Of a stretch of 64,000 nucleotides of DNA, positions 7,401-47,981 are shown piece by piece; position 1 is the stretch's first letter; the number at the start of each line of letters is the position of its first letter. This DNA comes from Candidatus Poribacteria bacterium. GTDB lineage: Bacteria; Poribacteria; WGA-4E; WGA-3G. Below the pieces are notes generated by a model, which saw only the letters and a program-made list of their open reading frames with translations, did not search any database and had not been told where the DNA came from. The translations under genes and the position numbers were made by a program. The DNA is taken from positions 64,001 through 128,000 of the forward strand of contig OZ242029.1 in assembly GCA_965205015.1 (NCBI GenBank), given 5' to 3'.

Positions 7401-8558
7401 ATGAACACTCCAGAAGTTTTTACACCGGAAGAACGAAACGAAAATACTGAGCGAAAGCGAGAACTGATTGAACTTATTGCCTCTGGAGAGGCTATACTTA
7501 TCGTTGGAGCCGGAAGTAGCGCGCGTGTCGGTTACGTGACTTGGAAAGGTCTTCTGAAGGAATTGGAGGATTTAGCCAATGAGTGCGGGGCCGGTCTCAA
7601 TCAAGAGCGGAAAGGCGATGATTTAGCATACGCAGAAGACATCAAATCACATATCTACAATGAAATGGGTGATTTAGGTAGATACCATGCTTTCCTTGAT
7701 GAACTTTTTAAACCTAAATCTCTAACTTACGACGAATTCCATAGATTGCTTGTTGATCTTCCTTTCAGAGGTATCTTAACCACAAATTACGATATTGTTC
7801 TTGAAGAAGCGTTGTTAGGAAAAAAGATTGAAGCAGAACGAGAAGACAGAGAGATTCCTCCTATAGATGGATCCCCGTTGGTAATCGGGCAAGATACCCC
7901 TCGACTCATCCATGAATTCCTACTATCGCGGAGCAACGATCCACGAATACCGCAACGGATTGCACACCTACATGGAATGTACAGGAATCCAACAAGTATC
8001 ATTCTCAGTATCAACGACTACATTAAGGCCTATGGCTTGCATGTTGCGGAGGATGGAGAGCAAGTTAATGAGAAAGAAGTATGGACGCTTCATCGGAAAT
8101 TGTTATGGGCTGTCTTAGCAACCCGCAGAGTCGTTTTTGTCGGTTTCAGCATGGACGACCCCTACTTTAACAAGATGTTAGAAATCGTCAGTGCAGACCT
8201 GTGGGGATGGAACAAATCTATTCACTTCGCAATTATGGGTATCTCTGCCGAAGACAAGGGAGGCATCCAAGATTCAAAAGATAAAGCAAATAGCCTCAAG
8301 AGTAAGTATGGGATAGATACTGTATTTTACGAGGTTTTTAAGGATTCACATCAACGTTTGGAGGATCTCTTCACTGAAATCGCAGAGCAATGTGAGGATA
8401 GGAATCGATCTGTTGAAGAAACCCAAGACCTGTTAAGCGATAGTGAGCGTTCCGAAGGTGAAGAATTAAAATCCATTTCAAGTGGATCGAGAGATATATT
8501 GAATTGGATTAAACGAGAAAGCCAACGTATGATAAGGAGGATGGGCGATGAAGATTAA
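7401..8558 (+). CDS. SIR2-family (SIR2_2) protein, putative NADase effector
   Basis: Motifs LIVGAGSS, ILTTNYD, HLHG and VFVGFSMDDP, typical of defence-associated sirtuins. Confidence 0.88.
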   Translation: MNTPEVFTPEERNENTERKRELIELIASGEAILIVGAGSSARVGYVTWKGLLKELEDLANECGAGLNQERKGDDLAYAEDIKSHIYNEMGDLGRYHAFLDELFKPKSLTYDEFHRLLVDLPFRGILTTNYDIVLEEALLGKKIEAEREDREIPPIDGSPLVIGQDTPRLIHEFLLSRSNDPRIPQRIAHLHGMYRNPTSIILSINDYIKAYGLHVAEDGEQVNEKEVWTLHRKLLWAVLATRRVVFVGFSMDDPYFNKMLEIVSADLWGWNKSIHFAIMGISAEDKGGIQDSKDKANSLKSKYGIDTVFYEVFKDSHQRLEDLFTEIAEQCEDRNRSVEETQDLLSDSERSEGEELKSISSGSRDILNWIKRESQRMIRRMGDED

Positions 8559-11500
8559 GCGAGAGAAACTACTTAGGGACTTGCAAGACTTCGCCACGCT
8601 AGGAAATGGAGTCATTATAGGAAGTCCAGGCGTTGGGAAAACGTACCTACTAAAAGAACTCTATCGGAGTTTAGACTCTCTTGAAATACCGGAATTCATA
8701 CTTCCTATTGATCAACTTGGAGATGGGACTGACAAAACTTTACGCGAAGAGTTGTCTTACGAGGGTGATCTGATTGAAAGGTTGAAATCCGTCCCTGTTT
8801 CAGACAAGAAAGCAATATTACTTTTTGATGCCTTTGATGCTGCCCGAGATGAACAGACGCGTAAACGTTTTCTGGACCTCATTCGCAGTGCAATTTTTGA
8901 ACTCCACGAGTCGTGGAATATCATCGTTACAGTCCGAACATACGACGCGAAAAAATCGCAGGAACTCTTAGACCTATTCGGCAATCCCAATGAAGCAGAT
9001 CTAACCAAATACAAAAGTAAAGACATACTATGCCGACATTTTACAATTCCCCCTTTTGATGAGCATGAGATTCTACAGGCATTTGATCAAATCGGGTGCC
9101 CGAAATCCATATACGAGGACGAGGAGGTCTCTCAGGACTTTAAGAACATCCTTGCAAACCCTTTCAATCTTTGGCTATTAGAAAAGATTCTAAAGAGCTC
9201 AGACGGGATTCCCGATTTTAGTCAGATTCATTCTGAAGTCCAGTTACTCGGTCTGTTTTGGCAACGACGGATTGAGAACGAAAACAGTGAGCACCTTCTG
9301 AGGCAAATCTCAGATAAGATGGTTCAAGAACGCTCATTGAGTGTCAGGGTAGATGACGTTTATGACGATGTAGACCTCGATAAACCAATGAGAAAAAACG
9401 CTTGGGATAAACTCCAGAGTGATGAAATCCTATCAAAGGTCTCTTCGTCTGGACAACGGATCGCTTTTTCTCATAATATCCTTTTTGACTATGCAATTAG
9501 CATTCTGCTCATTGATGATGAATCTCAACACCTTGAAGATTTTATTCTTGAGGATGAGTCACGTCCACTTTTTCTGCGCCCGAGTCTTACCTACTTTTTC
9601 ACTCGACTCTGGTACTATGATGACTCCACAAATTTTTGGCGCGCCTTCTGGCATATTTTGCAAAGAGATCAATTTATATCTTTGCGTCTCGTCGCGCGCT
9701 TGATTCCGACAAGCGTTATCGCAAATGAAGCCCGCGGAATTGAGCAATTGGAACCACTCTTGAAGAAACTACAGAACAGAGAAAAAATCGCAAACGAGGC
9801 AATAACACGGCTTCTGCAGGCACTCCAAACTCTACAAATTAAGCGGGACGCGCTCTGGATTGATTTTTTCGACCAAATCTCAGCGCACTTGCATAGTGAT
9901 TTTGCTTGGGATTTGGCAAATCTCACTTCAGATATCCTTGAGCGAGCACCAAAGACTGAAACACCTATCATAGACCCTTGTGGACAGATTGGACGGCGAC
10001 TGTTGAAGTGGGTATGGCAGGAAAGAGAAACGGGCGAAAACAATTGGTATGATCGCTTTGGGGGGCGTTGGGCGGTGCCGCTTGTTGCCAAAACCTACGG
10101 CACCAATGTCGATGAATCTCGAACACTTCTCAAAAAGGTTCTTGAACTGACAAAGGAAGAAAATTTTCCGATAGGCTTTCTGTCATGGTTAACCGAACAT
10201 GTTACTAAGATTTGGGACCATGATCCTAAATTTGTTATCTCAATCTATTACACTGTTTTTTCACACCAATTCACTGGCGATGGAGAAACAATACGAGGTG
10301 GAGCTGTCTTACCAATAACAACTTATCGCAGACAAGATTTTGAGATGTGTCAGTATCGATTGGTAAAGCATTTCTCCAATTTTCTTCGAGCAGCACCATT
10401 ACACGCAGCGAAAGCGGTGATCCGAAGTTTAAACGTCTTTATTGTTAGAGAACATAGCGTCAGGACAGAAGACATAAAGATGTTCAATTTTCGTGGAAAA
10501 TCTACTTGTTTTGTGCAAGATCATAGTTATATCTGGGATGAACAACAGTACACCGACGAGCCGATTGAAATGGCGGACGCTCTGTTTGAATACATCGGAG
10601 AATTGGCGATGTCGGAAGATCCGCGTCTTGATTCACTACTTGATGTTTTCTACGATGAGGTGGTAGTTGCTTTCTTTTGGAAACGGCTTTTGAAGACAGG
10701 GTCCCAGTTTCCAAAGGTCTTCGCTCCCCGTCTTTTTGAATTGTGCATTGCAGAGCCGATACAGAGGCATTCCGAAGCCTTTTATGAACTTTGCCTGTTT
10801 TTAAAAGCCGCTGCGTCTGATTTCACACCGAATAAACTTCTTCAGATTGAAAAGAGCATTTTGGCACTCCCAAGCGAAGCGAGAGACAAAAATCATCGTA
10901 ACGTTCTTGAAGAGGATAGAAATCGGCTTCTTGCCCAAATCCCGGTGGATTTGTTATGTACTGACGAAGCAAAGAGAATTCGAGAAGAAATGGAGCGTAA
11001 AAACGATGTTTCGGAGAATCGACCACCGGTTCGTTTTAGCACCTCGTGGGGACCCGTTACTGAGGAGAAGTGGCTTCAAACACAAGGTGTTGACACGACT
11101 ATACCTGAAAATCAAGAGTTACAACGCTTGTCCAGCCCTCTCAATAAATTCAGTTCAGATTGGCTAAATGATGCCCCAACTCAAGAAGCTATTAGGTTAA
11201 TTTTACCGAAGTTACAGGAGGCGTACACTAAACTAAAAAGCAACACAGAAGCCAATCAGGAAGCAATCAATCTACTGTGGCATAATCTAACCGATTGTGT
11301 AGCAATTCTCGGCCGAATTGCTAATAACCTTGAAAGTAATTCTTTCGCCTTTTGCCGACAAGTTCTCCTAGAGGCTTCAAAACATGAACAGCCTCAGCCG
11401 GACCCTAAATACGATGACGAATTTGATCATCCGGGTTATTCCTCATTTCCACGGCATGAAGCCGCCCGTGGATTACTGAGACTTGCGTTTCATCAACCTG

Positions 11501-12585
11501 ACCCAGAAATATTAGAGGCAATTGAAATACTGGCGAGTGACCCTGTACCATCTGTTAGGATGGTAACGGCGATGGAATTAACTAATGTTTATGTCAAATC
11601 TCCAGAAAGGTTCTGGCACATCATGGACAATAGGGCAATCCATGAACGGAATCGCATCGTGCAAAAATATCTCTACCATACATTAACTCGGGTGGTTGCA
11701 AAGGAAAAAGAGAATGAAGACAAGACAACTCGCGTCATGGCGAAACTATTGGAGCATACACCTCCACCTACAGAAGGATTAGAACCGTCAGATTCATTCA
11801 TCGTTTTGTTAATGTGGCTGATAATTGATCGCCAAAATCCATGGGCATTGAAAACAATCGAAGATACATTTTTCACGGATCCCATCCGGTTTGCTAACCC
11901 TCTGAGTCGTGCAGTGTCTGAGATCGTGAGAGATTACGTCCTCCCTAAACATCTTGAAACAGATATAGGACGCGAAAGAGCAAAACGAGCTATTGGATGG
12001 TTAGGGCAAGTGATCGATATAATTGCTGATAGGGTTATGGAATTGTATGGTATCGCCAAAGAACATGAGACTGAAGAAGGAGTGAAAGAGTTACACAACA
12101 CCTACAAAGCAATTGATGAGGTGATAACACGTCTTTACTTTGCAGTTGCCTACAAAAGAGATCAATCTGAGGAACCTGTTGAGGAAATCTCCAACGAGTT
12201 ACGCTGTGATTTCTATAATGAAGTCAAACCTTTGATGCAACAGGTCATTACTTTTGCACAAAAACCAGAAAGCGGTATTATGTTTGCACCGACAGCACAC
12301 TATTTCATGCAACTTCTAACGAGTTTTCTCAGTTGCGATCCCAAAGGTATTTTACGCTTAGCCTCAAGGGTTGCGAAGTCAAGTGAACGGTTCGGTTATA
12401 CGCTTGATTCCATCGCGGTTCGGGATGTTGTCGAATTTGTTGAAATTGTCCTCGCTGACTACCGAGATGAGGTGCGTGATGGTGAAGCATTGGAGGACCT
12501 GCTAAATCTCTTGGATATGTTTGCCAAAATAGGATGGACGGATGCCCTTAAACTTGTTTGGCGGCTTGATGAGGTTTTTCGGTAG
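8548..12585 (+). CDS. STAND/NACHT-like ATPase with long helical sensor region (Avs/AVAST-like), no fused effector
   Basis: Walker A GSPGVGKT near residue 25, Walker B LLFDAFD, sensor TVR, NPFNL and FSHNILFDY, then ~1000 aa of helical repeats; own AAGGAGG RBS; 11-nt overlap with the SIR2 gene. Confidence 0.78.
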   Translation: MKIKREKLLRDLQDFATLGNGVIIGSPGVGKTYLLKELYRSLDSLEIPEFILPIDQLGDGTDKTLREELSYEGDLIERLKSVPVSDKKAILLFDAFDAARDEQTRKRFLDLIRSAIFELHESWNIIVTVRTYDAKKSQELLDLFGNPNEADLTKYKSKDILCRHFTIPPFDEHEILQAFDQIGCPKSIYEDEEVSQDFKNILANPFNLWLLEKILKSSDGIPDFSQIHSEVQLLGLFWQRRIENENSEHLLRQISDKMVQERSLSVRVDDVYDDVDLDKPMRKNAWDKLQSDEILSKVSSSGQRIAFSHNILFDYAISILLIDDESQHLEDFILEDESRPLFLRPSLTYFFTRLWYYDDSTNFWRAFWHILQRDQFISLRLVARLIPTSVIANEARGIEQLEPLLKKLQNREKIANEAITRLLQALQTLQIKRDALWIDFFDQISAHLHSDFAWDLANLTSDILERAPKTETPIIDPCGQIGRRLLKWVWQERETGENNWYDRFGGRWAVPLVAKTYGTNVDESRTLLKKVLELTKEENFPIGFLSWLTEHVTKIWDHDPKFVISIYYTVFSHQFTGDGETIRGGAVLPITTYRRQDFEMCQYRLVKHFSNFLRAAPLHAAKAVIRSLNVFIVREHSVRTEDIKMFNFRGKSTCFVQDHSYIWDEQQYTDEPIEMADALFEYIGELAMSEDPRLDSLLDVFYDEVVVAFFWKRLLKTGSQFPKVFAPRLFELCIAEPIQRHSEAFYELCLFLKAAASDFTPNKLLQIEKSILALPSEARDKNHRNVLEEDRNRLLAQIPVDLLCTDEAKRIREEMERKNDVSENRPPVRFSTSWGPVTEEKWLQTQGVDTTIPENQELQRLSSPLNKFSSDWLNDAPTQEAIRLILPKLQEAYTKLKSNTEANQEAINLLWHNLTDCVAILGRIANNLESNSFAFCRQVLLEASKHEQPQPDPKYDDEFDHPGYSSFPRHEAARGLLRLAFHQPDPEILEAIEILASDPVPSVRMVTAMELTNVYVKSPERFWHIMDNRAIHERNRIVQKYLYHTLTRVVAKEKENEDKTTRVMAKLLEHTPPPTEGLEPSDSFIVLLMWLIIDRQNPWALKTIEDTFFTDPIRFANPLSRAVSEIVRDYVLPKHLETDIGRERAKRAIGWLGQVIDIIADRVMELYGIAKEHETEEGVKELHNTYKAIDEVITRLYFAVAYKRDQSEEPVEEISNELRCDFYNEVKPLMQQVITFAQKPESGIMFAPTAHYFMQLLTSFLSCDPKGILRLASRVAKSSERFGYTLDSIAVRDVVEFVEIVLADYRDEVRDGEALEDLLNLLDMFAKIGWTDALKLVWRLDEVFR

Positions 12586-43005: not shown

Positions 43006-43377
43006 TTACAAAACCCATGATTCTAAATGGGCTGCGATGACCTCAATATCGGTAATAGATCCATCCGCAATTTTGAAACCGAGCTCAATGATTGAATCCT
43101 CAATGTCAAGACGTAGGGTGCAACCGTTAAATTCTAAAAACAAGATCGCACAATTGAGACCGGTCCGCTTGTTACCGTCCAGGAATATATGTCCTGTAAT
43201 GATGTGATGCGCATACACAGCGGCTTTTTGGGATAGGGCGGGATAGAGCTCTGTATCACCAAACTTTCCGCGAACTGCCTCAACCAAATAGTGCAACTGA
43301 CTTTCATTCAACAATTGATAGTCGCCGACATGTCCTTCGGCGACCTCCAGAATCTCTGGAATCGTCAAATATCTCAT
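43006..43377 (-). CDS. Fic/Doc (death-on-curing) toxin
   Basis: Fic motif HIFLDGNKRTG; LYPALSQKAA. Confidence 0.9.
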   Translation of the reverse strand: MRYLTIPEILEVAEGHVGDYQLLNESQLHYLVEAVRGKFGDTELYPALSQKAAVYAHHIITGHIFLDGNKRTGLNCAILFLEFNGCTLRLDIEDSIIELGFKIADGSITDIEVIAAHLESWVL

Positions 43378-43682
43378 AGGTTACCGAGGGCTTTCCATGC
43401 GCGTTTATAATTTCGCAGCGTTTCGTCTAAGGCGGTGGCACTATTTATCCCGATGCTGCTCGCAGTTTTCATGTCTGCTTTCGCTTTTTCCACTTCTCCG
43501 AGGTGTAACCACACCTTGCTCCGCCTGTAATAGGCATCGGCATAGTCGGGGTTGAGCTCTATTGCTTTCGTATAGTCTTCAATCGCAAGTTTAAGCGCAC
43601 CGTTTTCGGCATGGGTTAAGCCGCGATTGTAATATGTCTCGGCACATTTTTGATTGTGTTCTTTTGTTATTTTCTGTTCCAT
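43374..43682 (-). CDS. Small TPR protein with C-terminal antitoxin-like helix
   Basis: Two TPRs, then ALDETLRNYKRAWKALG; ATGA overlap with doc. Confidence 0.7.
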   Translation of the reverse strand: MEQKITKEHNQKCAETYYNRGLTHAENGALKLAIEDYTKAIELNPDYADAYYRRSKVWLHLGEVEKAKADMKTASSIGINSATALDETLRNYKRAWKALGNL

Positions 43683-43703
43683 AATTCAAATCTTCTCAAT
43701 AGC

Positions 43704-45146
43704 TTAAACATTTGCCAACGCAGTTTCGAGTTCCTCCACCGCTTTAATGGCTTCCTCAACCTCTCTCTTGGGAGTATTTGTGATAGTGGCGTGATTGAGC
43801 GGGTTCAGGATAATACTCCGATACAACTCAACTTGCCTGATGAGTGTCTGTTGTAAAAAAGGAGTGCCATCCCTTTTTGTTCCAGTTTTTATGGGATCCC
43901 AGAAATCTTCACTCGTCAACTTTTTGGGATTTTCACAATATCTAACACGAAGATTCCTTTTCTCACAAAATCTCTTGATTATTGCCTCAAAAGCGGTCCG
44001 AAGATAGACTGCACAGGCTTTATAGTCATTGACATCAAGATATTCCCTCGCCTTTTCAAGGTACGCTTTATCCTCGACATAGATAGGGACCTCATATTCA
44101 TCGGTCTGCGAAAAATAGAATTCAGCATATTTCCAATCCTTCTGCTCCGTTCGCTGTTTAGCGATCTCATACCACGCCTTATCGTAAGTCGTCAAAAAGA
44201 TTTGGTGGTCTGGAAAATAGTCTTTTAGAATATCAAGAACTGGTAGGCGGTTTGACATGTCTAAACCTATCAACACGTCATCAAGCGCGAGGATCTTCAG
44301 TTCACTGTCTGGCTGGATCAAAATCGACGAAAGGTAGATCGCGATTGCAATCGCCGACAACTTTGCTTCGTTCAGGAAGCGGTGGTGTGAAGGTATATCT
44401 GTATCAAAGACTTCTACTTTTAAGAGAATCTCTTGGTTCTCAAGCGTTTTCTCATTTCGGTTGTATGTAACTCCCTGACAATCTAAGTCAAGCCCGACCT
44501 TGTATCCAAATCTGTTAAGAATTTCGGATACCTTCGGACGCAGTTCTCCTAATCTATGTGTCAGTTCATAGTTAAAAATGTCTACTCGTTCCTCAAGGGC
44601 TGCGATTTGAGTTTTCGCGTTTCTACGGGGAAATGGCGGCTGAATATCATTCCAAGCATTTGCAAGACTTCGTTCTGTCACGGGGTTAACAGTATTCACC
44701 AATAGCACATTAACCAACAAATCAAATAAATTCACAGTATCGTTCTCACGCTGGAGATAGTGTGTCTCCAGCAGTGATTTGTAGTCAAGAAATCCCTTTA
44801 CTTTTGAAGCCTCGGTAATCAACTCGTCAGTTGTCTCACCTTTAACGCGTTGCGACCACTCATAGATATTCGCTTTCGATTCTTGATCTGCGCGGAGGCA
44901 CAGTTTAATGTGCCCCGGATCTTCAACAAAGATATTCTGATGGTTTTCAAAGTTGGTGTCTTTGGCGTCCTTGTTATCCGTATCTCCCCCAGATTCAAGG
45001 AACAATTTTAGAGCGAGGTACAGGGACGATTTGCCGCTCCCGTTTTCACCATAGACCAATAAATTCTTTCCTGATTTACTCAGATCTATATGATAGTTAC
45101 CACGGAACGCTCTGAAGTTTTTGATCTCAATGTCGGTAATTCTCAC
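43704..45146 (-). CDS. ABC/SMC-type ATPase with C-terminal HEPN-like domain (RloC/PrrC-like architecture)
   Basis: IKNFRAF, GENGSGKS, variant signature LNEAK, LALDDVLIGLD and TTYD; tail YLRTAFE...YRSIILNPLNH. Confidence 0.72.
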   Translation of the reverse strand: MRITDIEIKNFRAFRGNYHIDLSKSGKNLLVYGENGSGKSSLYLALKLFLESGGDTDNKDAKDTNFENHQNIFVEDPGHIKLCLRADQESKANIYEWSQRVKGETTDELITEASKVKGFLDYKSLLETHYLQRENDTVNLFDLLVNVLLVNTVNPVTERSLANAWNDIQPPFPRRNAKTQIAALEERVDIFNYELTHRLGELRPKVSEILNRFGYKVGLDLDCQGVTYNRNEKTLENQEILLKVEVFDTDIPSHHRFLNEAKLSAIAIAIYLSSILIQPDSELKILALDDVLIGLDMSNRLPVLDILKDYFPDHQIFLTTYDKAWYEIAKQRTEQKDWKYAEFYFSQTDEYEVPIYVEDKAYLEKAREYLDVNDYKACAVYLRTAFEAIIKRFCEKRNLRVRYCENPKKLTSEDFWDPIKTGTKRDGTPFLQQTLIRQVELYRSIILNPLNHATITNTPKREVEEAIKAVEELETALANV

Positions 45147-47569
45147 AATTTCCCCTGAATGACGCGAACAGATTTTACACTGTCTAAAAAGAAAAGGTTG
45201 CGCCGGATTGGATGCGTTTTTTCATATAGGAGCTCAAAGATGTCCCGGAAAGCGGACATTTTATCACCCTGAATATCTTCAATTGGTGGCAACCCTTCGT
45301 CCAATAACGGTTGTAAAAAGACTTTATCACTCTTATGGAGTTCCGCAGGGAGGTAAGCCTCATACACCAATCCATCAATAACTCGCTCAAAATATCCGAG
45401 CATTATGCGGTCGCGAGCATACTTCAAATCCTTGCTGTTTATCGTCGGCTGCTGTTGTAGATAGATCAGGTAATCAACGATTTTAGCAATAAGTGCTTTG
45501 TGGACTGGCGTGATGTCGGGAATTGGAATTTGTTGGATATACCCACTGCGCGCCCGAAGCGGATCAATCGTCAATTGGTTCGATACCTGCGAATAAAACC
45601 ACTCCACCGTCCGGGAATTGAGAAGACCGCAAAGCCATTTTTCCTTGGTTGGAATGAGGTAAGACGTATTCCCGTAATAAAAACCTTCAGTATCAACCGC
45701 AAAAGTCTGATGGTTATAGGTGTTTGGAGAGACCAGTTTCGGTTGCACAAAACGCTCTGCATCCCGGAGAGACGTAGGTAACTCGTACCACGCCTGCTTG
45801 CCCTTTCTTTTTTCCAGGCTCTCTTTATACTTTTCCAGATACTTCAGAATTGCTGGATAGTCGTTTATCGGTATACCGCGGTGGGCAAAGATTAACCATT
45901 GCTGCGGTGTATCAACGTGCCAACGTCTGAGATCCTGCCCGTGCAAAAATGGTTTCAAAATATCAGCGGATGAGGGATGTGCCGCAATGAGTTCCTCTCG
46001 CGTTGCTTTGTCTACCACAAACACCTCAGTGGGTGCTGTGTTGATACCGAAGGCAGACTTGGCACTGATGTACTCGCTTAAGGGTGGCCCAGCGTTGCGT
46101 AATTGATCGCGTAAATTCACTACATTCGGCGATTCAAGCGGATTGCCATCAGCATCCAACACTTTTTGCAGCTTCGGATAGCGATCCCGCCGGCGTTGCG
46201 TTAGCAGCAGTGCAAGGTCCTCTGGCAATTTGACGAGATGGTTCTTCTGATACGTCTCAACATCTTTGTAGAAGTTATGGAACATTGCAATGATGTCGAT
46301 TCCCAATCGTTTAGCCGTTGTCAGGTCGGCTTTGGCTTTGTTCCACTCCTGCAGTTGTAACCACACTATTCCACGATTGTAATAGGCTATATCATGATTG
46401 GGGTTTAGTTCTATTGCTTTGGTATAGTTTTCTATGGCACAATCAGCATCATCTTTTTCCCCGTAGGCGACCCCGCGGTTATTGTAAGCATTTGCAGAAT
46501 TGGGATTTAGTTCTATTGCTTTGGTATGGTCTTTGATGGCACGATCATAATCACCTATATCGCTATAAACATTGCCGCGATTGATATAAGCATTAGCGAG
46601 ATCTGGTTTCAGTTCTATTACTTCGGTATAGTCTTCAATGGCACGGTCGTAATCGCCTTTTTCGTAGTAAATATTACCACGATTGTAATAAGTATTGGGA
46701 TTATCTGGATACAGTTCTATTGCTTTGGTATAGTCTTTTATTGCAAGTTCAACTTCACCCTTTTTGCTGTAAGTTACCGCACGATTGTGATAAGTTTGGG
46801 ACAATTCAAAATTCAGTTCTATCATCTTGATAGCTTCCTGAATAGCAAGACCATAATTGCCTTTGTTAGTGTAAATGACATTGGGATAATCAGGGCGTAG
46901 TTGTATAGCGATGTTATAGTCTTTTATAGCATTATCAAGTTTGCCTTTTTCAGCGTAAGCAATACCTCGATTGTTATGGGTGTTCGCGTTATGAGGGTTG
47001 AGGTTGATAGCGTCGGAGTATGTCTCTATTGCCACGTCTAGTTGTCCAAGCATCATTAGAAGGTTCCCGTGTTGGAATATTAATTCAGCATGTAGTTCTT
47101 TTTCAAATGTTCCAGACGATTCATCGGTCCAAGCCTGAATCTTGTGAACAACTTTTTGGACACCCTCTATCACATTCTGCCACCCTTGATTTTCAGGTTG
47201 CCATTTATTAATAGGCAAGCCTCTGTCAGGCAGGACTTGGAAGTCACTAAGTTGGTAGGTCTGCCAATCGCAAGGCTCTAGGATAATGGGGATAATCCTT
47301 ACTTCTCGATTTAACGCTTCCATCAATTCCCTATTGCAATTTTTGGAGGCAAGGCTCGCAGCGGAAACGAGATAGAGAAGCAGGTCCGAATCTGCAACCT
47401 TTTTGAGAATATCCTCCTGAAGTGCGCTGTCTCCAAGTGTAAGTTGACCATCATCCCAGGTTACTAACTCGTTTTGCTGTACCATCACAGCAAGGTGCTT
47501 CCGTAATTCGTCTTTTGCTTTTGTATCCTCGTGTGAATAGGTAATAAACCCCTTTAATAGCCTGCTCAT
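45143..47569 (-). CDS. TIR-TPR-TaqI_C(TRD) fusion protein
   Basis: TIR (FITYSHED, LVSAASLASKNCNREL, IIPIILEPCDW), about 7-8 TPRs, then a methyltransferase specificity region (LKPFLHGQDLRRW, YPAILKYL, WYEL, LCGLLNS, IQQIPIP). Start at 47569 after GGAG. Confidence 0.82.
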   Translation of the reverse strand: MSRLLKGFITYSHEDTKAKDELRKHLAVMVQQNELVTWDDGQLTLGDSALQEDILKKVADSDLLLYLVSAASLASKNCNRELMEALNREVRIIPIILEPCDWQTYQLSDFQVLPDRGLPINKWQPENQGWQNVIEGVQKVVHKIQAWTDESSGTFEKELHAELIFQHGNLLMMLGQLDVAIETYSDAINLNPHNANTHNNRGIAYAEKGKLDNAIKDYNIAIQLRPDYPNVIYTNKGNYGLAIQEAIKMIELNFELSQTYHNRAVTYSKKGEVELAIKDYTKAIELYPDNPNTYYNRGNIYYEKGDYDRAIEDYTEVIELKPDLANAYINRGNVYSDIGDYDRAIKDHTKAIELNPNSANAYNNRGVAYGEKDDADCAIENYTKAIELNPNHDIAYYNRGIVWLQLQEWNKAKADLTTAKRLGIDIIAMFHNFYKDVETYQKNHLVKLPEDLALLLTQRRRDRYPKLQKVLDADGNPLESPNVVNLRDQLRNAGPPLSEYISAKSAFGINTAPTEVFVVDKATREELIAAHPSSADILKPFLHGQDLRRWHVDTPQQWLIFAHRGIPINDYPAILKYLEKYKESLEKRKGKQAWYELPTSLRDAERFVQPKLVSPNTYNHQTFAVDTEGFYYGNTSYLIPTKEKWLCGLLNSRTVEWFYSQVSNQLTIDPLRARSGYIQQIPIPDITPVHKALIAKIVDYLIYLQQQPTINSKDLKYARDRIMLGYFERVIDGLVYEAYLPAELHKSDKVFLQPLLDEGLPPIEDIQGDKMSAFRDIFELLYEKTHPIRRNLFFLDSVKSVRVIQGKL

Positions 47570-47981
47570 TGGCTTTTCTCCACAATCCCAATTTTTTTGG
47601 AATAATACTCCCACAATTATTTCAATAGCGAACTTTCACAGATGAGATGGATGACACGGATTGATTCCGTTTACCGTACCAATGCCAGATGACACAGATT
47701 TAGAAATCCGCGAAATCTGCCTAATCCGCGTCAATCCGCGATTCAGACAATTTATCTTATGCCTTGAGGATAATGATAGCATGCAAGATGGATAGGTTTC
47801 AACCGAATTTTAGGATTAATTTCATCCCTCACATACCGCTCCGATGGAGCGGAACATCGGAGATTTCGGATAAGCACTTGTTTCCCCAAGCATTTAGTGT
47901 TATAATAAAGAATAGAAAGCACAGTTTCCATGTTTGCCGTCCTATGATAAACTCCAAAAAGCAAAAAGGATACGCAAGAAA

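Follow-up and report, generated by a model that had tools for sequence, protein, structure and literature searches.

A TIR-TPR protein with a restriction-derived C-terminus and its ABC ATPase partner in Poribacteria: a candidate defence pair that looks like a guard surviving its restriction enzyme

Why should a protein that begins with a TIR domain end like a restriction enzyme, in a region from which the rest of that enzyme is missing? This question is raised by a locus of four genes (A to D; Table 1) within a 64,000-nucleotide stretch of the genome of a Candidatus Poribacteria bacterium (assembly GCA_965205015.1, contig OZ242029.1, positions 64,001 to 128,000 of the forward strand). The whole 64-kb stretch is referred to below as the window, and positions given without a locus label are those of the window. 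A first-pass annotation, made from the sequence alone, had regarded the four genes as one candidate defence operon, in which an orphan target-recognition domain (TRD) in A could act as a decoy or DNA sensor, and had offered a recent chimera as the alternative. The results presented here point to a smaller unit, namely genes A and B, which resemble a restriction guard left over after the loss of its restriction enzyme. The model for such a guard is PrrC, which, like RloC, is described as a tRNase combining an ATP-binding cassette (ABC) ATPase with a HEPN domain (PMC3710099), and which its linked restriction enzyme keeps silent until the phage peptide Stp releases it (PMC3710099; preprint 10.1101/2024.01.29.577857). 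On balance, we lean towards seeing A-B as a self-contained anti-phage module, of the abortive-infection type, descended from a restriction-modification enzyme and a PrrC-like guard; as judged from the sequences, a role of the pair in defence is quite likely.

All four open reading frames (ORFs) are co-oriented on the reverse strand and lie exactly where the first-pass annotation had placed them: A overlaps B by 4 nt (45143-45146), C overlaps D by 4 nt (43374-43377) and 21 nt (43683-43703) separate B from C. A GGAG sequence resembling a ribosome-binding site upstream of ATG 47569, as well as an identical 808-aa protein in a public collection (P0005), fits this start for A; the Pfam domain positions given here are counted from the GTG at 47614. 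The domain composition proposed for A was confirmed by Pfam matches above the cut-offs, with TIR_2 at residues 23-126 (1e-11, 45.9 bits, cut-off 28), a TPR array (TPR_1, 8e-59) and TaqI_C at residues 554-698 (4.3e-15, 56.4 bits, cut-off 26.5). Each of the 44 TIRs aligned retains the Glu residue of CNxEL.

The last 353 residues of A, termed A1, comprise the TRD and a helical tail, divided as in Table 1. The TRD matches that of M.BseCI (7qw5; 2.2e-12), and residues 490-715 of A align to positions 859-1101 of the 1148-position type IIG REase-MTase profile of PADLOC (1.5e-22). A shares TaqI_C and the C-terminal tail with type IIG enzymes, and their methyltransferase and nuclease or nuclease-helicase features are absent from it. 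As had been noticed at first pass, A contains no [DNS]PP[YFW] motif, in contrast to the type IIG relative P0258 with its NPPY at 773, and matches no methyltransferase or nuclease family of Pfam. Scanning of 42 window ORFs revealed no DNA methyltransferase, SNF2 helicase or PLD nuclease, and full-length P0258 matches the window only at the C-terminus of A (42% identity over 352 aligned positions).

The A1 profile was searched against 1.84 billion representatives. After the members of its own family, the best matches were proteins of 1000-1400 aa, in which the full 353 positions aligned at the extreme C-terminus; ten of these were checked, and nine proved to contain an Eco57I methylase with TaqI_C, the tenth being a divergent TIR-TPR-TaqI_C protein. 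Among 80 loci carrying relatives of the closest such enzyme, two near the top, from Acidobacteriota (L088) and Opitutaceae (L091), encode a homologue of B just downstream (47% and 32% identity over the full length of B, respectively). The gene order in both is PLD-SNF2 helicase, Eco57I methyltransferase-TaqI_C, B. A PIN_3 gene (8805-9233) lies between the methyltransferase and ATPase genes of L088, and in L091 the start of B overlaps the methyltransferase stop by 4 nt. Alignment of the A C-terminus with the last ~345 residues of the two methyltransferases runs end to end at 29-31% identity and extends to the final ...FFLDS..VR.I.GK. These systems contain true homologues of B and of the A C-terminus and share their order with A-B (in L091 also the stop/start overlap); unlike A-B, they keep the methyltransferase and the helicase-nuclease and have neither TIR nor TPR. 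PADLOC identified REase_MTase_IIG (3e-222) and 'HKD+Snf2' in L088 and L091, and contains no model for their ATPase partner. An OLD/AriA-like ATPase gene (L091:10-1758) was also observed upstream in L091; like the PIN_3 gene of L088, it is an additional gene of defence-like type.

A search with a B profile that included two distant members revealed how widespread this pairing is. It yielded 142 confirmed loci, of which 80 were kept; 79 of these were new, 13 being of the sponge-symbiont type and 66 of other types. They originate from Nostoc, Pseudanabaena, Bacteroidota, Agrobacterium vitis, Shinella, Desulfonema, Geomobilimonas, Akkermansia, Planctomycetes and others. Outside the sponge-symbiont type, the same-strand gene upstream of B matched A1 or its tail in 63 of 66 loci (no such match was found upstream of B in the remaining three), and the taxa showing the pairing include Cyanobacteriota, Bacteroidota, Pseudomonadota, Verrucomicrobiota (with Akkermansia) and Acidobacteriota, among others. 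The end of the match lay within 60 nt of the B start in 40 of the 63 loci, at 61-300 nt in 13 and at a greater distance, with genes embedded between, in 10. Most of the upstream ORFs measure 1150-1400 aa; in a sample of 12, Eco57I, N6_Mtase and TaqI_C were found together in ten and TaqI_C only in two (Nostoc and Desulfonema). A helicase like that of L088 was visible upstream in 20 of the 79 loci, a count limited by the length of the flanks. Among these 63 loci the match was confined to the tail in 13 and covered part of the TRD in 19, whereas the whole TRD-tail is conserved in the sponge-symbiont family. The regular association of B relatives with full-length Eco57I-type methyltransferases across many phyla had not been foreseen at first pass.

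A bare form of the pair was found on the conjugative plasmid pANSO36B of Nostoc cf. commune (L248, 5988-8434), where a 338-aa TaqI_C-only protein and the ATPase (labelled in RefSeq 'TaqI-like C-terminal specificity domain-containing protein' and 'AAA family ATPase') are encoded by genes that overlap by 4 nt, with no methyltransferase nearby. Similar short forms were observed in L184, L210, L218 and L199.

In a quick maximum-likelihood tree of 71 B proteins, the 22 rows of the TPR type sit inside a supported set of 30 rows (SH-aLRT 96) that also includes methyltransferase-type B proteins from cyanobacteria, Anaerolineae and Acidobacteriota. The TPR-type label needs two changes on this tree, a number as low as this being reached in none of 500 shuffles. 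Nested among the TPR-type rows is the B protein of a Latescibacteria locus (L175:1084-6413) that encodes a 1306-aa full-length Eco57I methyltransferase-TaqI_C; this locus may be the nearest ancestral form still extant, or may have arisen by back-recombination. Since nearly all homologues of B outside the sponge-symbiont type follow a gene with the same TRD-tail, which is usually a full-length Eco57I-type methyltransferase and often has a PLD-SNF2 helicase gene before it, sequence comparison indicates that A-B derives from a restriction-modification enzyme with a PrrC-like ABC-HEPN partner, in which the methyltransferase was replaced by an effector-TPR part.

A search for the same architecture in other genomes, proposed with the first-pass annotation, revealed that the fusion is not unique to one assembly. 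The last 354 residues of A have relatives at 81-100% identity in more than 120 distinct 90%-identity clusters, all with TPR and TaqI_C (protein lengths 457-1018 aa), and the few named ones are called 'tetratricopeptide repeat protein [Candidatus Poribacteria bacterium]'. Scanning of one genome per species via A confirmed 105 loci, of which 80 were kept; the family counts given below cover these 80. Most are from Poribacteria, six are from Latescibacterota, three from 'uncultured bacterium' and one from a 2.7-kb contig labelled Curvivirga, and complete chromosomes and independent assemblies are among them. The nearest relatives, the synteny with L001 and L005 and the B tree make a poribacterial origin of the window most likely. 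The N-terminal head of A is a TIR (of two subtypes) in 41 loci, FRG in 11 and an HNH_5-like domain, below the Pfam cut-off, in four; it is unknown in one, and 23 proteins have no head, some of them being frameshifted TIR forms. The TIR is one of several exchangeable heads, and such exchange is typical of immune effectors.

The ratio of nonsynonymous to synonymous substitution (dN/dS) of the TRD-tail, compared over seven relatives, is 0.094-0.173, which is not neutral and is no different from that of the TIR, ATPase or HEPN-like parts (0.076-0.197 in the other domains). The A family is old, widespread and under purifying selection. Of the chimera alternative, the replacement of the 5′ part of a type IIG gene by a TIR-TPR part stands, but the event was not recent; nor are the chimera and the sensor/decoy readings, originally set against each other, mutually exclusive. 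Comparison of the window with L001 gave a synonymous divergence (dS) of 1.23 and 70% aa identity in the ATPase part of B (44127-45146 vs L001:6001-7023), 0.36-0.43 (90-91% identity) in the A C-terminus and the HEPN-like part of B, and 0.15-0.43 in the segments neighbouring the ATPase part; this mosaic shows that recombination has taken place within the pair.

The surroundings of two members of the family were also noted. At L006:7-2611 (the place of L047), an extra TaqI_C gene end, 38% identical to the A C-terminus, and a 574-aa FRG-TPR gene without TaqI_C lie directly upstream of a TIR-TPR-TaqI_C gene. At L007:1473-3975 (the place of L037), genes for an IS1595-family transposase and a C-5 cytosine DNA methylase precede a head-less A, and the B gene of this locus is split at residue ~390.

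The coupling of A to B was visible from both directions. In all seven loci found through B, the gene after A was B, and in all seven B started at the A stop. Across the family, B was intact and adjacent, its start overlapping the A stop, in 51 of the 80 loci, and intact after a 214-nt gap in one; 15 loci carry B in fragments, 7 lack it, and 6 have lost it at a contig end. Co-folding with the ATPase, another check suggested at first pass, was performed with the C-terminal 353 residues of A and gave an ipSAE of 0.83 (0.69, 0.83 and 0.84 in the individual runs), as against 0.00 for the best of three controls; among 157 solved complexes 116 attain the mark used, and among 215 mismatched pairs 2 do so, which is a rough guide only, own alignments having been used. 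The runs share at least 82% of the contacts, with a partner pLDDT of at least 76. Confident contacts on A occur only in the tail (A1 positions 258-274, 292, 327-343, 350 and 352) and include the YFE and FFLD motifs that the Eco57I-type methyltransferases also carry, while those on B (54-55, 108-115, 153-158, 189-200, 223-225 and 277-281) fall in the ATPase insert and nearby loops. We know of no similar solved complex, and it seems unlikely that the co-fold passed through the memory of the model for one. The prediction makes it likely that A and B form a physical complex through the A tail.

Comparison of pairwise distances in 50 loci gave a corresponding picture. Those of the A tail correlated with B residues 1-120 (r 0.72) and 121-255 (r 0.76), and less with the TRD of A itself (r 0.54) and the HEPN-like part of B (r 0.43), with a Mantel p of 0.001 for all mirror-tree correlations. 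The weaker correlation on the A side is noteworthy, as is the match to the predicted interface. Co-variation of the A C-terminus with the HEPN part of B, seen in seven loci, was not upheld in the 50, in which the tail tracks the ATPase and its insert.

The first-pass description of B as an ABC ATPase-HEPN protein held for its ATPase part. Pfam places AAA_23/SMC_N at residues 3-331, the B profile matches the Rad50 head 3qku (2.5e-9), and B has the N-terminal Rad50/SbcC-like ABC ATPase domain of the PrrC/RloC type. Walker A (GENGSGK[ST]), the LS signature (LNEAKLSA), LDD and GLD are invariant in 30 family members. No match of B to the Pfam AAA_13 model was found at E<=0.01, and its L091 homologue scores 23.7 bits, below the cut-off of 36. 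The VIA wide search covered B up to about residue 388. The C-terminal domain is probably HEPN-like, as judged from its sequence and predicted model: residues 361-480 are all-helical, and R383, E387, N448 and H452 are invariant in 28 B sequences from many phyla. In per-member Pfam scans of the 28, matches below the cut-off were obtained to DUF4145, a member of the HEPN superfamily (PMC3710099), in 19 sequences, to HEPN PF05168 in four and to Ymh in one. Some relatives have a precomputed Abi_C match, and ESM Atlas neighbours with AAA_13 score 0.83-0.84 (leads only). No homologue of B was found in 50,697 phage records.

The computations show how the two genes are coupled and where they came from, their folds, the exchangeable heads, the predicted interface and purifying selection; an RNase activity of B, its silencing, a trigger and an outcome we infer by analogy with PrrC. 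B would be a latent RNase, in which the ABC ATPase is fused to a HEPN-like domain, the presumed toxin. A keeps only the final ~350 residues of an Eco57I-type methyltransferase, i.e. the TaqI_C TRD and the helical tail, the latter forming a predicted docking surface for the ATPase insert of B. In place of the lost methyltransferase and helicase-nuclease partner there now stands a TPR array with an exchangeable head, which is a TIR of the NADase type here and FRG, an HNH-like domain or nothing elsewhere. In the resting state A would keep B silent, as EcoprrI does PrrC. A phage cue, which might be DNA or an anti-restriction protein to which the TRD looks like a restriction enzyme, would act on the TRD-tail and alter the A-B complex; the ATPase of B would then turn on the HEPN-like domain and TPR-mediated clustering would turn on the TIR, with abortive infection as the presumed outcome. 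It may be suggested tentatively that the orphan TRD-tail is an integrated decoy, a counterpart of the integrated decoys of plant NLRs, baiting anti-restriction proteins directed against Eco57I-type enzymes. That the binding of such bait would fire two independent suicide effectors, the HEPN-like RNase on the ABC ATPase and the TIR NADase (or FRG/HNH) on the TPR scaffold, is likewise possible rather than probable.

Several observations weigh against the interpretation of A-B as a guard-derived defence module. The co-fold is silent on the silencing of B and on the trigger; the columns of its interface are barely more conserved than others (0.81 vs 0.74 and 0.79), and the mirror-tree signal is confounded by physical linkage. 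Since the monomer model of A1 is poor (pLDDT 44), the fold of the TRD rests on sequence only. In the 74 assessable loci, B is fragmented in 15 and absent in 7, which reflects either frequent decay of the pair or indels in the assemblies, and the TIR is dispensable, since 23 of 80 A proteins have no N-terminal head. B carries Asp in place of Glu in its Walker B motif (LDD, not LDE) and no H-loop His was found across 30 family members, so that it may hydrolyse ATP poorly. The HEPN-like domain has the motif R-x4-N-x3-H, of which only N and H are invariant, and not a clean Rx4-6H. The best of the weak DUF4145 matches (7e-4) is below the gathering score, and a DUF4145 scan of five genomes gave one unrelated match and none on B. 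A PDB profile search with this domain returned nothing (best E 0.26), its comparison with a single DUF4145 domain by hhalign, which has low power, gave a probability of 0.2%, and HEPN membership of B was reached at no curated threshold. PADLOC v2 contains no system model for A or B. To our knowledge, no phage of these uncultured symbionts has been described.

Other explanations of the pair were considered. DNA itself might be sensed, without any anti-restriction protein: the TRD would bind a sequence or a modified base, the heads of B would clamp DNA, and foreign DNA would trigger the HEPN-like domain and the TIR. Such a role would be natural for TaqI_C, which is a DNA target-recognition domain (the homologous TRD of M.BseCI is matched), and for the head of B, which resembles the DNA-clamping Rad50/SMC/RecF proteins; in addition, RloC is reported to respond to DNA and DNA damage (PMC3458546, PMC3874168, PMC3710099). 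The TRD is as conserved as the tail (mean pairwise distances 0.354 vs 0.352 in 50 loci) and has a net charge of +5, which fits a kept ligand site. However, neither A nor the window ORFs scanned include a DNA methyltransferase, and methylation therefore cannot serve the orphan TRD in discriminating between self and foreign DNA. Moreover, in real restriction relatives the TRD diverges while the tail is kept, as the partial and tail-only matches among the 63 loci indicate, whereas the TRD of the sponge-symbiont family is frozen, unlike that of a specificity-switching DNA reader. Direct DNA sensing is, in our judgement, rather unlikely, and the lack of methylation discrimination together with a TRD that is frozen and not diversifying gives a mild lean to an adaptor or decoy over sequence-specific DNA sensing.

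Were A-B an addiction module, a toxin-regulator pair that serves to maintain the locus or plasmid carrying it and plays no part against phages, the bare TaqI_C-protein and ATPase pair on the conjugative Nostoc plasmid, the Doc toxin-antitoxin cassette present in some loci and the decay or loss of B in assessable ones would find a simple explanation. This is improbable, given that head swapping between TIR, FRG and HNH and an ancestry beside restriction enzymes with PLD-SNF2 helicases are hallmarks of defence, and that the locus in the window lies on a chromosome and shares synteny with L001 and L005, no direct repeats or att-like sites having been found beside it. Very improbable is a function of the TIR-TPR protein as a 'eukaryote-like' factor acting on sponge cells, with an incidental link to B. 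The confinement of the family to sponge-associated Poribacteria and Latescibacterota in the scans made would suit this role, but the strict translational coupling to B and the restriction-derived C-terminus do not fit it, and the FRG/HNH alternatives and the 23 head-less forms are unlike a secreted host effector. Finally, an assembly artefact or a decaying pseudogene, i.e. a functionless one-off fusion, in favour of which nothing was found, was rejected, as was a unique chimera, in view of the >120 clusters and the 80 kept loci, which show the same architecture in independent assemblies including complete chromosomes, with dN/dS of 0.09-0.17.

The interpretation of A-B as a guard pair invites comparison with PrrC-EcoprrI (type Ic). 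PrrC and B both have an N-terminal ABC ATPase domain, followed by a C-terminal domain that is HEPN in PrrC and probably HEPN-like in B, and both are encoded beside a component of a restriction enzyme, the presumed binding partner. Neighbourhoods with ABC-HEPN, restriction-modification and DOC genes were described in 2013 as multi-level defence (PMC3710099), and the co-occurrence of these genes, as well as Fic/Doc toxins near PrrC, is reported (PMC3710099; preprint 10.1101/2024.01.29.577857). Unlike PrrC, B falls short of Pfam AAA_13 and has N-x3-H with an upstream R in place of the clean motif, and its partner is not HsdMSR but the TRD-tail of an Eco57I-type methyltransferase, the restriction enzyme itself being gone in the window. 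By analogy, A-B would work like PrrC-EcoprrI while standing outside the PrrC/RloC family model. The likening of B to PrrC and RloC at first pass was sound, and so was the proposed functional link between the orphan TRD and its ATPase partner. RloC is a Rad50-like ABC ATPase fused to a HEPN tRNase and works without an obligatory restriction enzyme. It is, however, described as a single long protein with a coiled coil and a zinc hook, whereas B has a short insert and would depend on a separate TRD-tail protein.

PARIS, a pair of the ABC ATPase AriA and the TOPRIM protein AriB in which the ATPase senses anti-restriction proteins and releases a tRNA-cleaving effector (PMC12839542; 2024 preprint), provides a functional model for a decoy role of A-B. 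AriA profiles match only residues 3-123 of B (PADLOC, 2.7e-12), which is of the Rad50/SMC and not the OLD type, and no TOPRIM gene was found in the A-D locus, so that the PARIS pair is not complete. The TIR of A, with its catalytic Glu, resembles Thoeris ThsB (profile 1.3e-20); no ThsA (SIR2/SLOG or equivalent) is present in the locus, and no signal receiver of the ThsA type was seen in the window. An association of TIR with TPR is reported for the BcTir/BcTpr pair in a preprint (10.1101/2023.05.26.542521). Unlike in Thoeris and BcTir/BcTpr, the TIR is optional in the A family, and no description of a TIR fused to a restriction TRD was found in the searchable literature. In Hma, a helicase, a methylase and an ATPase are encoded in the same order as in L088, whose helicase is matched weakly by the HmaA profile (3e-23). 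Membership in Hma was rejected, B being an ABC ATPase and HmaC a DUF499 ATPase, while HmaB is described as an m5C (5-methylcytosine) methyltransferase (PMC8565338; PMC12839542). A-B is not a type IIG enzyme, Thoeris, PARIS or Hma. No name for the pairing of the ATPase with an Eco57I-type TRD-tail was found in PADLOC v2, RefSeq or the literature (the 2020 ABC ATPase classification and supplements lie outside this scope), and the sponge-symbiont offshoot, in which TIR/FRG/HNH and TPR replace the methyltransferase, was not found in PADLOC v2, RefSeq names or the literature either.

Genes C and D form a separate cassette, with a TPR-tailed antitoxin and a Doc toxin, present in a minority of loci. 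As proposed at first pass, D belongs to the Doc family (Fic, 2.6e-9; TIGR01550 Doc, 53.6 bits, cut-off 38.65) and carries HIFLDGNKR, and C is a TPR protein, with TPR and NF047558 TPR_END_plus (NCBIfam) matches. Like a Phd-Doc pair, D has the HxFxDGNKR motif, kept in six of six Doc homologues, and overlaps a small upstream gene by 4 nt; unlike in Phd-Doc, this gene encodes a TPR protein with a short tail, for which only TPR models, and no Phd, YefM or AbrB, were matched in Pfam and NCBIfam. C and D together follow B in only 3 of the 80 loci, so that the proposal of A-D as one four-gene system was rejected: A-B is the conserved unit and C and D are accessory. Doc without B was found in one locus, C alone in four, and Doc upstream in two, one of them partial. 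In two loci (L043:5900-6731, L029:1000-1752), the gene before Doc encodes a TPR protein whose sequence ends in ...YDRAWKTL...; that of L043 carries the TPR-end cap and the 'VKLPEDLAAMLT' linker, as found before the TRD in A, and the TPR end-of-group model of NCBIfam matches both A and C. These sequences suggest that the TPR end and linker make up what looks like a shared adaptor, joined to a TRD-tail when the partner is B and to an antitoxin-like tail when it is Doc.

The locus forms an island of ~4.7 kb with a GC content of 0.41-0.45, compared with 0.49-0.53 in the flanks, and has housekeeping genes on both sides. Promoter-like and terminator-like sites occur in the region at chance level. 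A SIR2_2 gene (7401-8558, forward strand; 2e-19), located 35 kb from the A-D locus and not linked to it, overlaps by 11 nt an ORF of 1345 aa (8548-12585, forward strand) without a Pfam match at 1e-10; the two genes (7401-12585) may be a second, unrelated defence pair.

Table 1. Position of the A-D genes, their domains and an upstream site in the window.
Feature	Position	Strand	Remarks
Gene A, ORF	45143..47614	-	open from GTG 47614
Gene A, TIR-TPR-TaqI_C-tail protein, 808 aa	45143..47569	-	start ATG 47569
TIR_2 domain of A, conserved Glu in CNxEL	47237..47548	-	Pfam; PADLOC ThsB 1.3e-20
TPR array of A, 102-nt period, ending in TPR_END_plus cap and linker	46295..47107	-	
TRD of A, A1 positions 1-254	45443..46204	-	Pfam TaqI_C at 45521-45955
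Helical C-terminal tail of A, A1 positions 255-353	45146..45442	-	common to Eco57I-type methyltransferases; predicted docking surface for B
Gene B, ABC ATPase with probable HEPN-like C-terminus	43704..45146	-	ORF call
B residues 1-345, Rad50/SMC/RecF-type ABC ATPase head	44112..45146	-	Walker A GENGSGKS; LS in LNEAKLSA; Walker B LDD
B residues 346-480, all-helical, probably HEPN-like domain, invariant R383, E387, N448, H452	43704..44111 (stop codon included)	-	
Gene C, 102-aa TPR protein, TPR-end cap and short tail; presumed Doc antitoxin	43374..43682	-	
Gene D, Doc/Fic toxin with HxFxDGNKR	43006..43377	-	
Promoter-like site upstream of A	47773..47802	-	10/12 consensus matches; such sites regionally not above chance

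If the interpretation of A-B as a guard-derived module holds, it would reveal a broad pairing of an Eco57I-type methyltransferase-TRD with a Rad50-like ABC ATPase that has a HEPN-like end, for which no name was found, and the PrrC principle would extend from type I to type IIG-like restriction. The sponge-symbiont family would then offer a natural experiment: the guarded enzyme has been removed, its docking and recognition end alone having been retained and fused to immune effectors, which makes it testable what a restriction guard senses: the state of the enzyme, DNA or a phage inhibitor. Should the decoy proposal also be true, restriction guards can uncouple from the guarded enzyme and become free-standing sensors of counter-defence, and the methyltransferase-TRD and ABC-HEPN pairing found in many phyla would constitute an extensive guard system of the PrrC kind for enzymes resembling type IIG. 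Little is known of the phage biology of sponge symbionts, to whose defences A-B would add a family.

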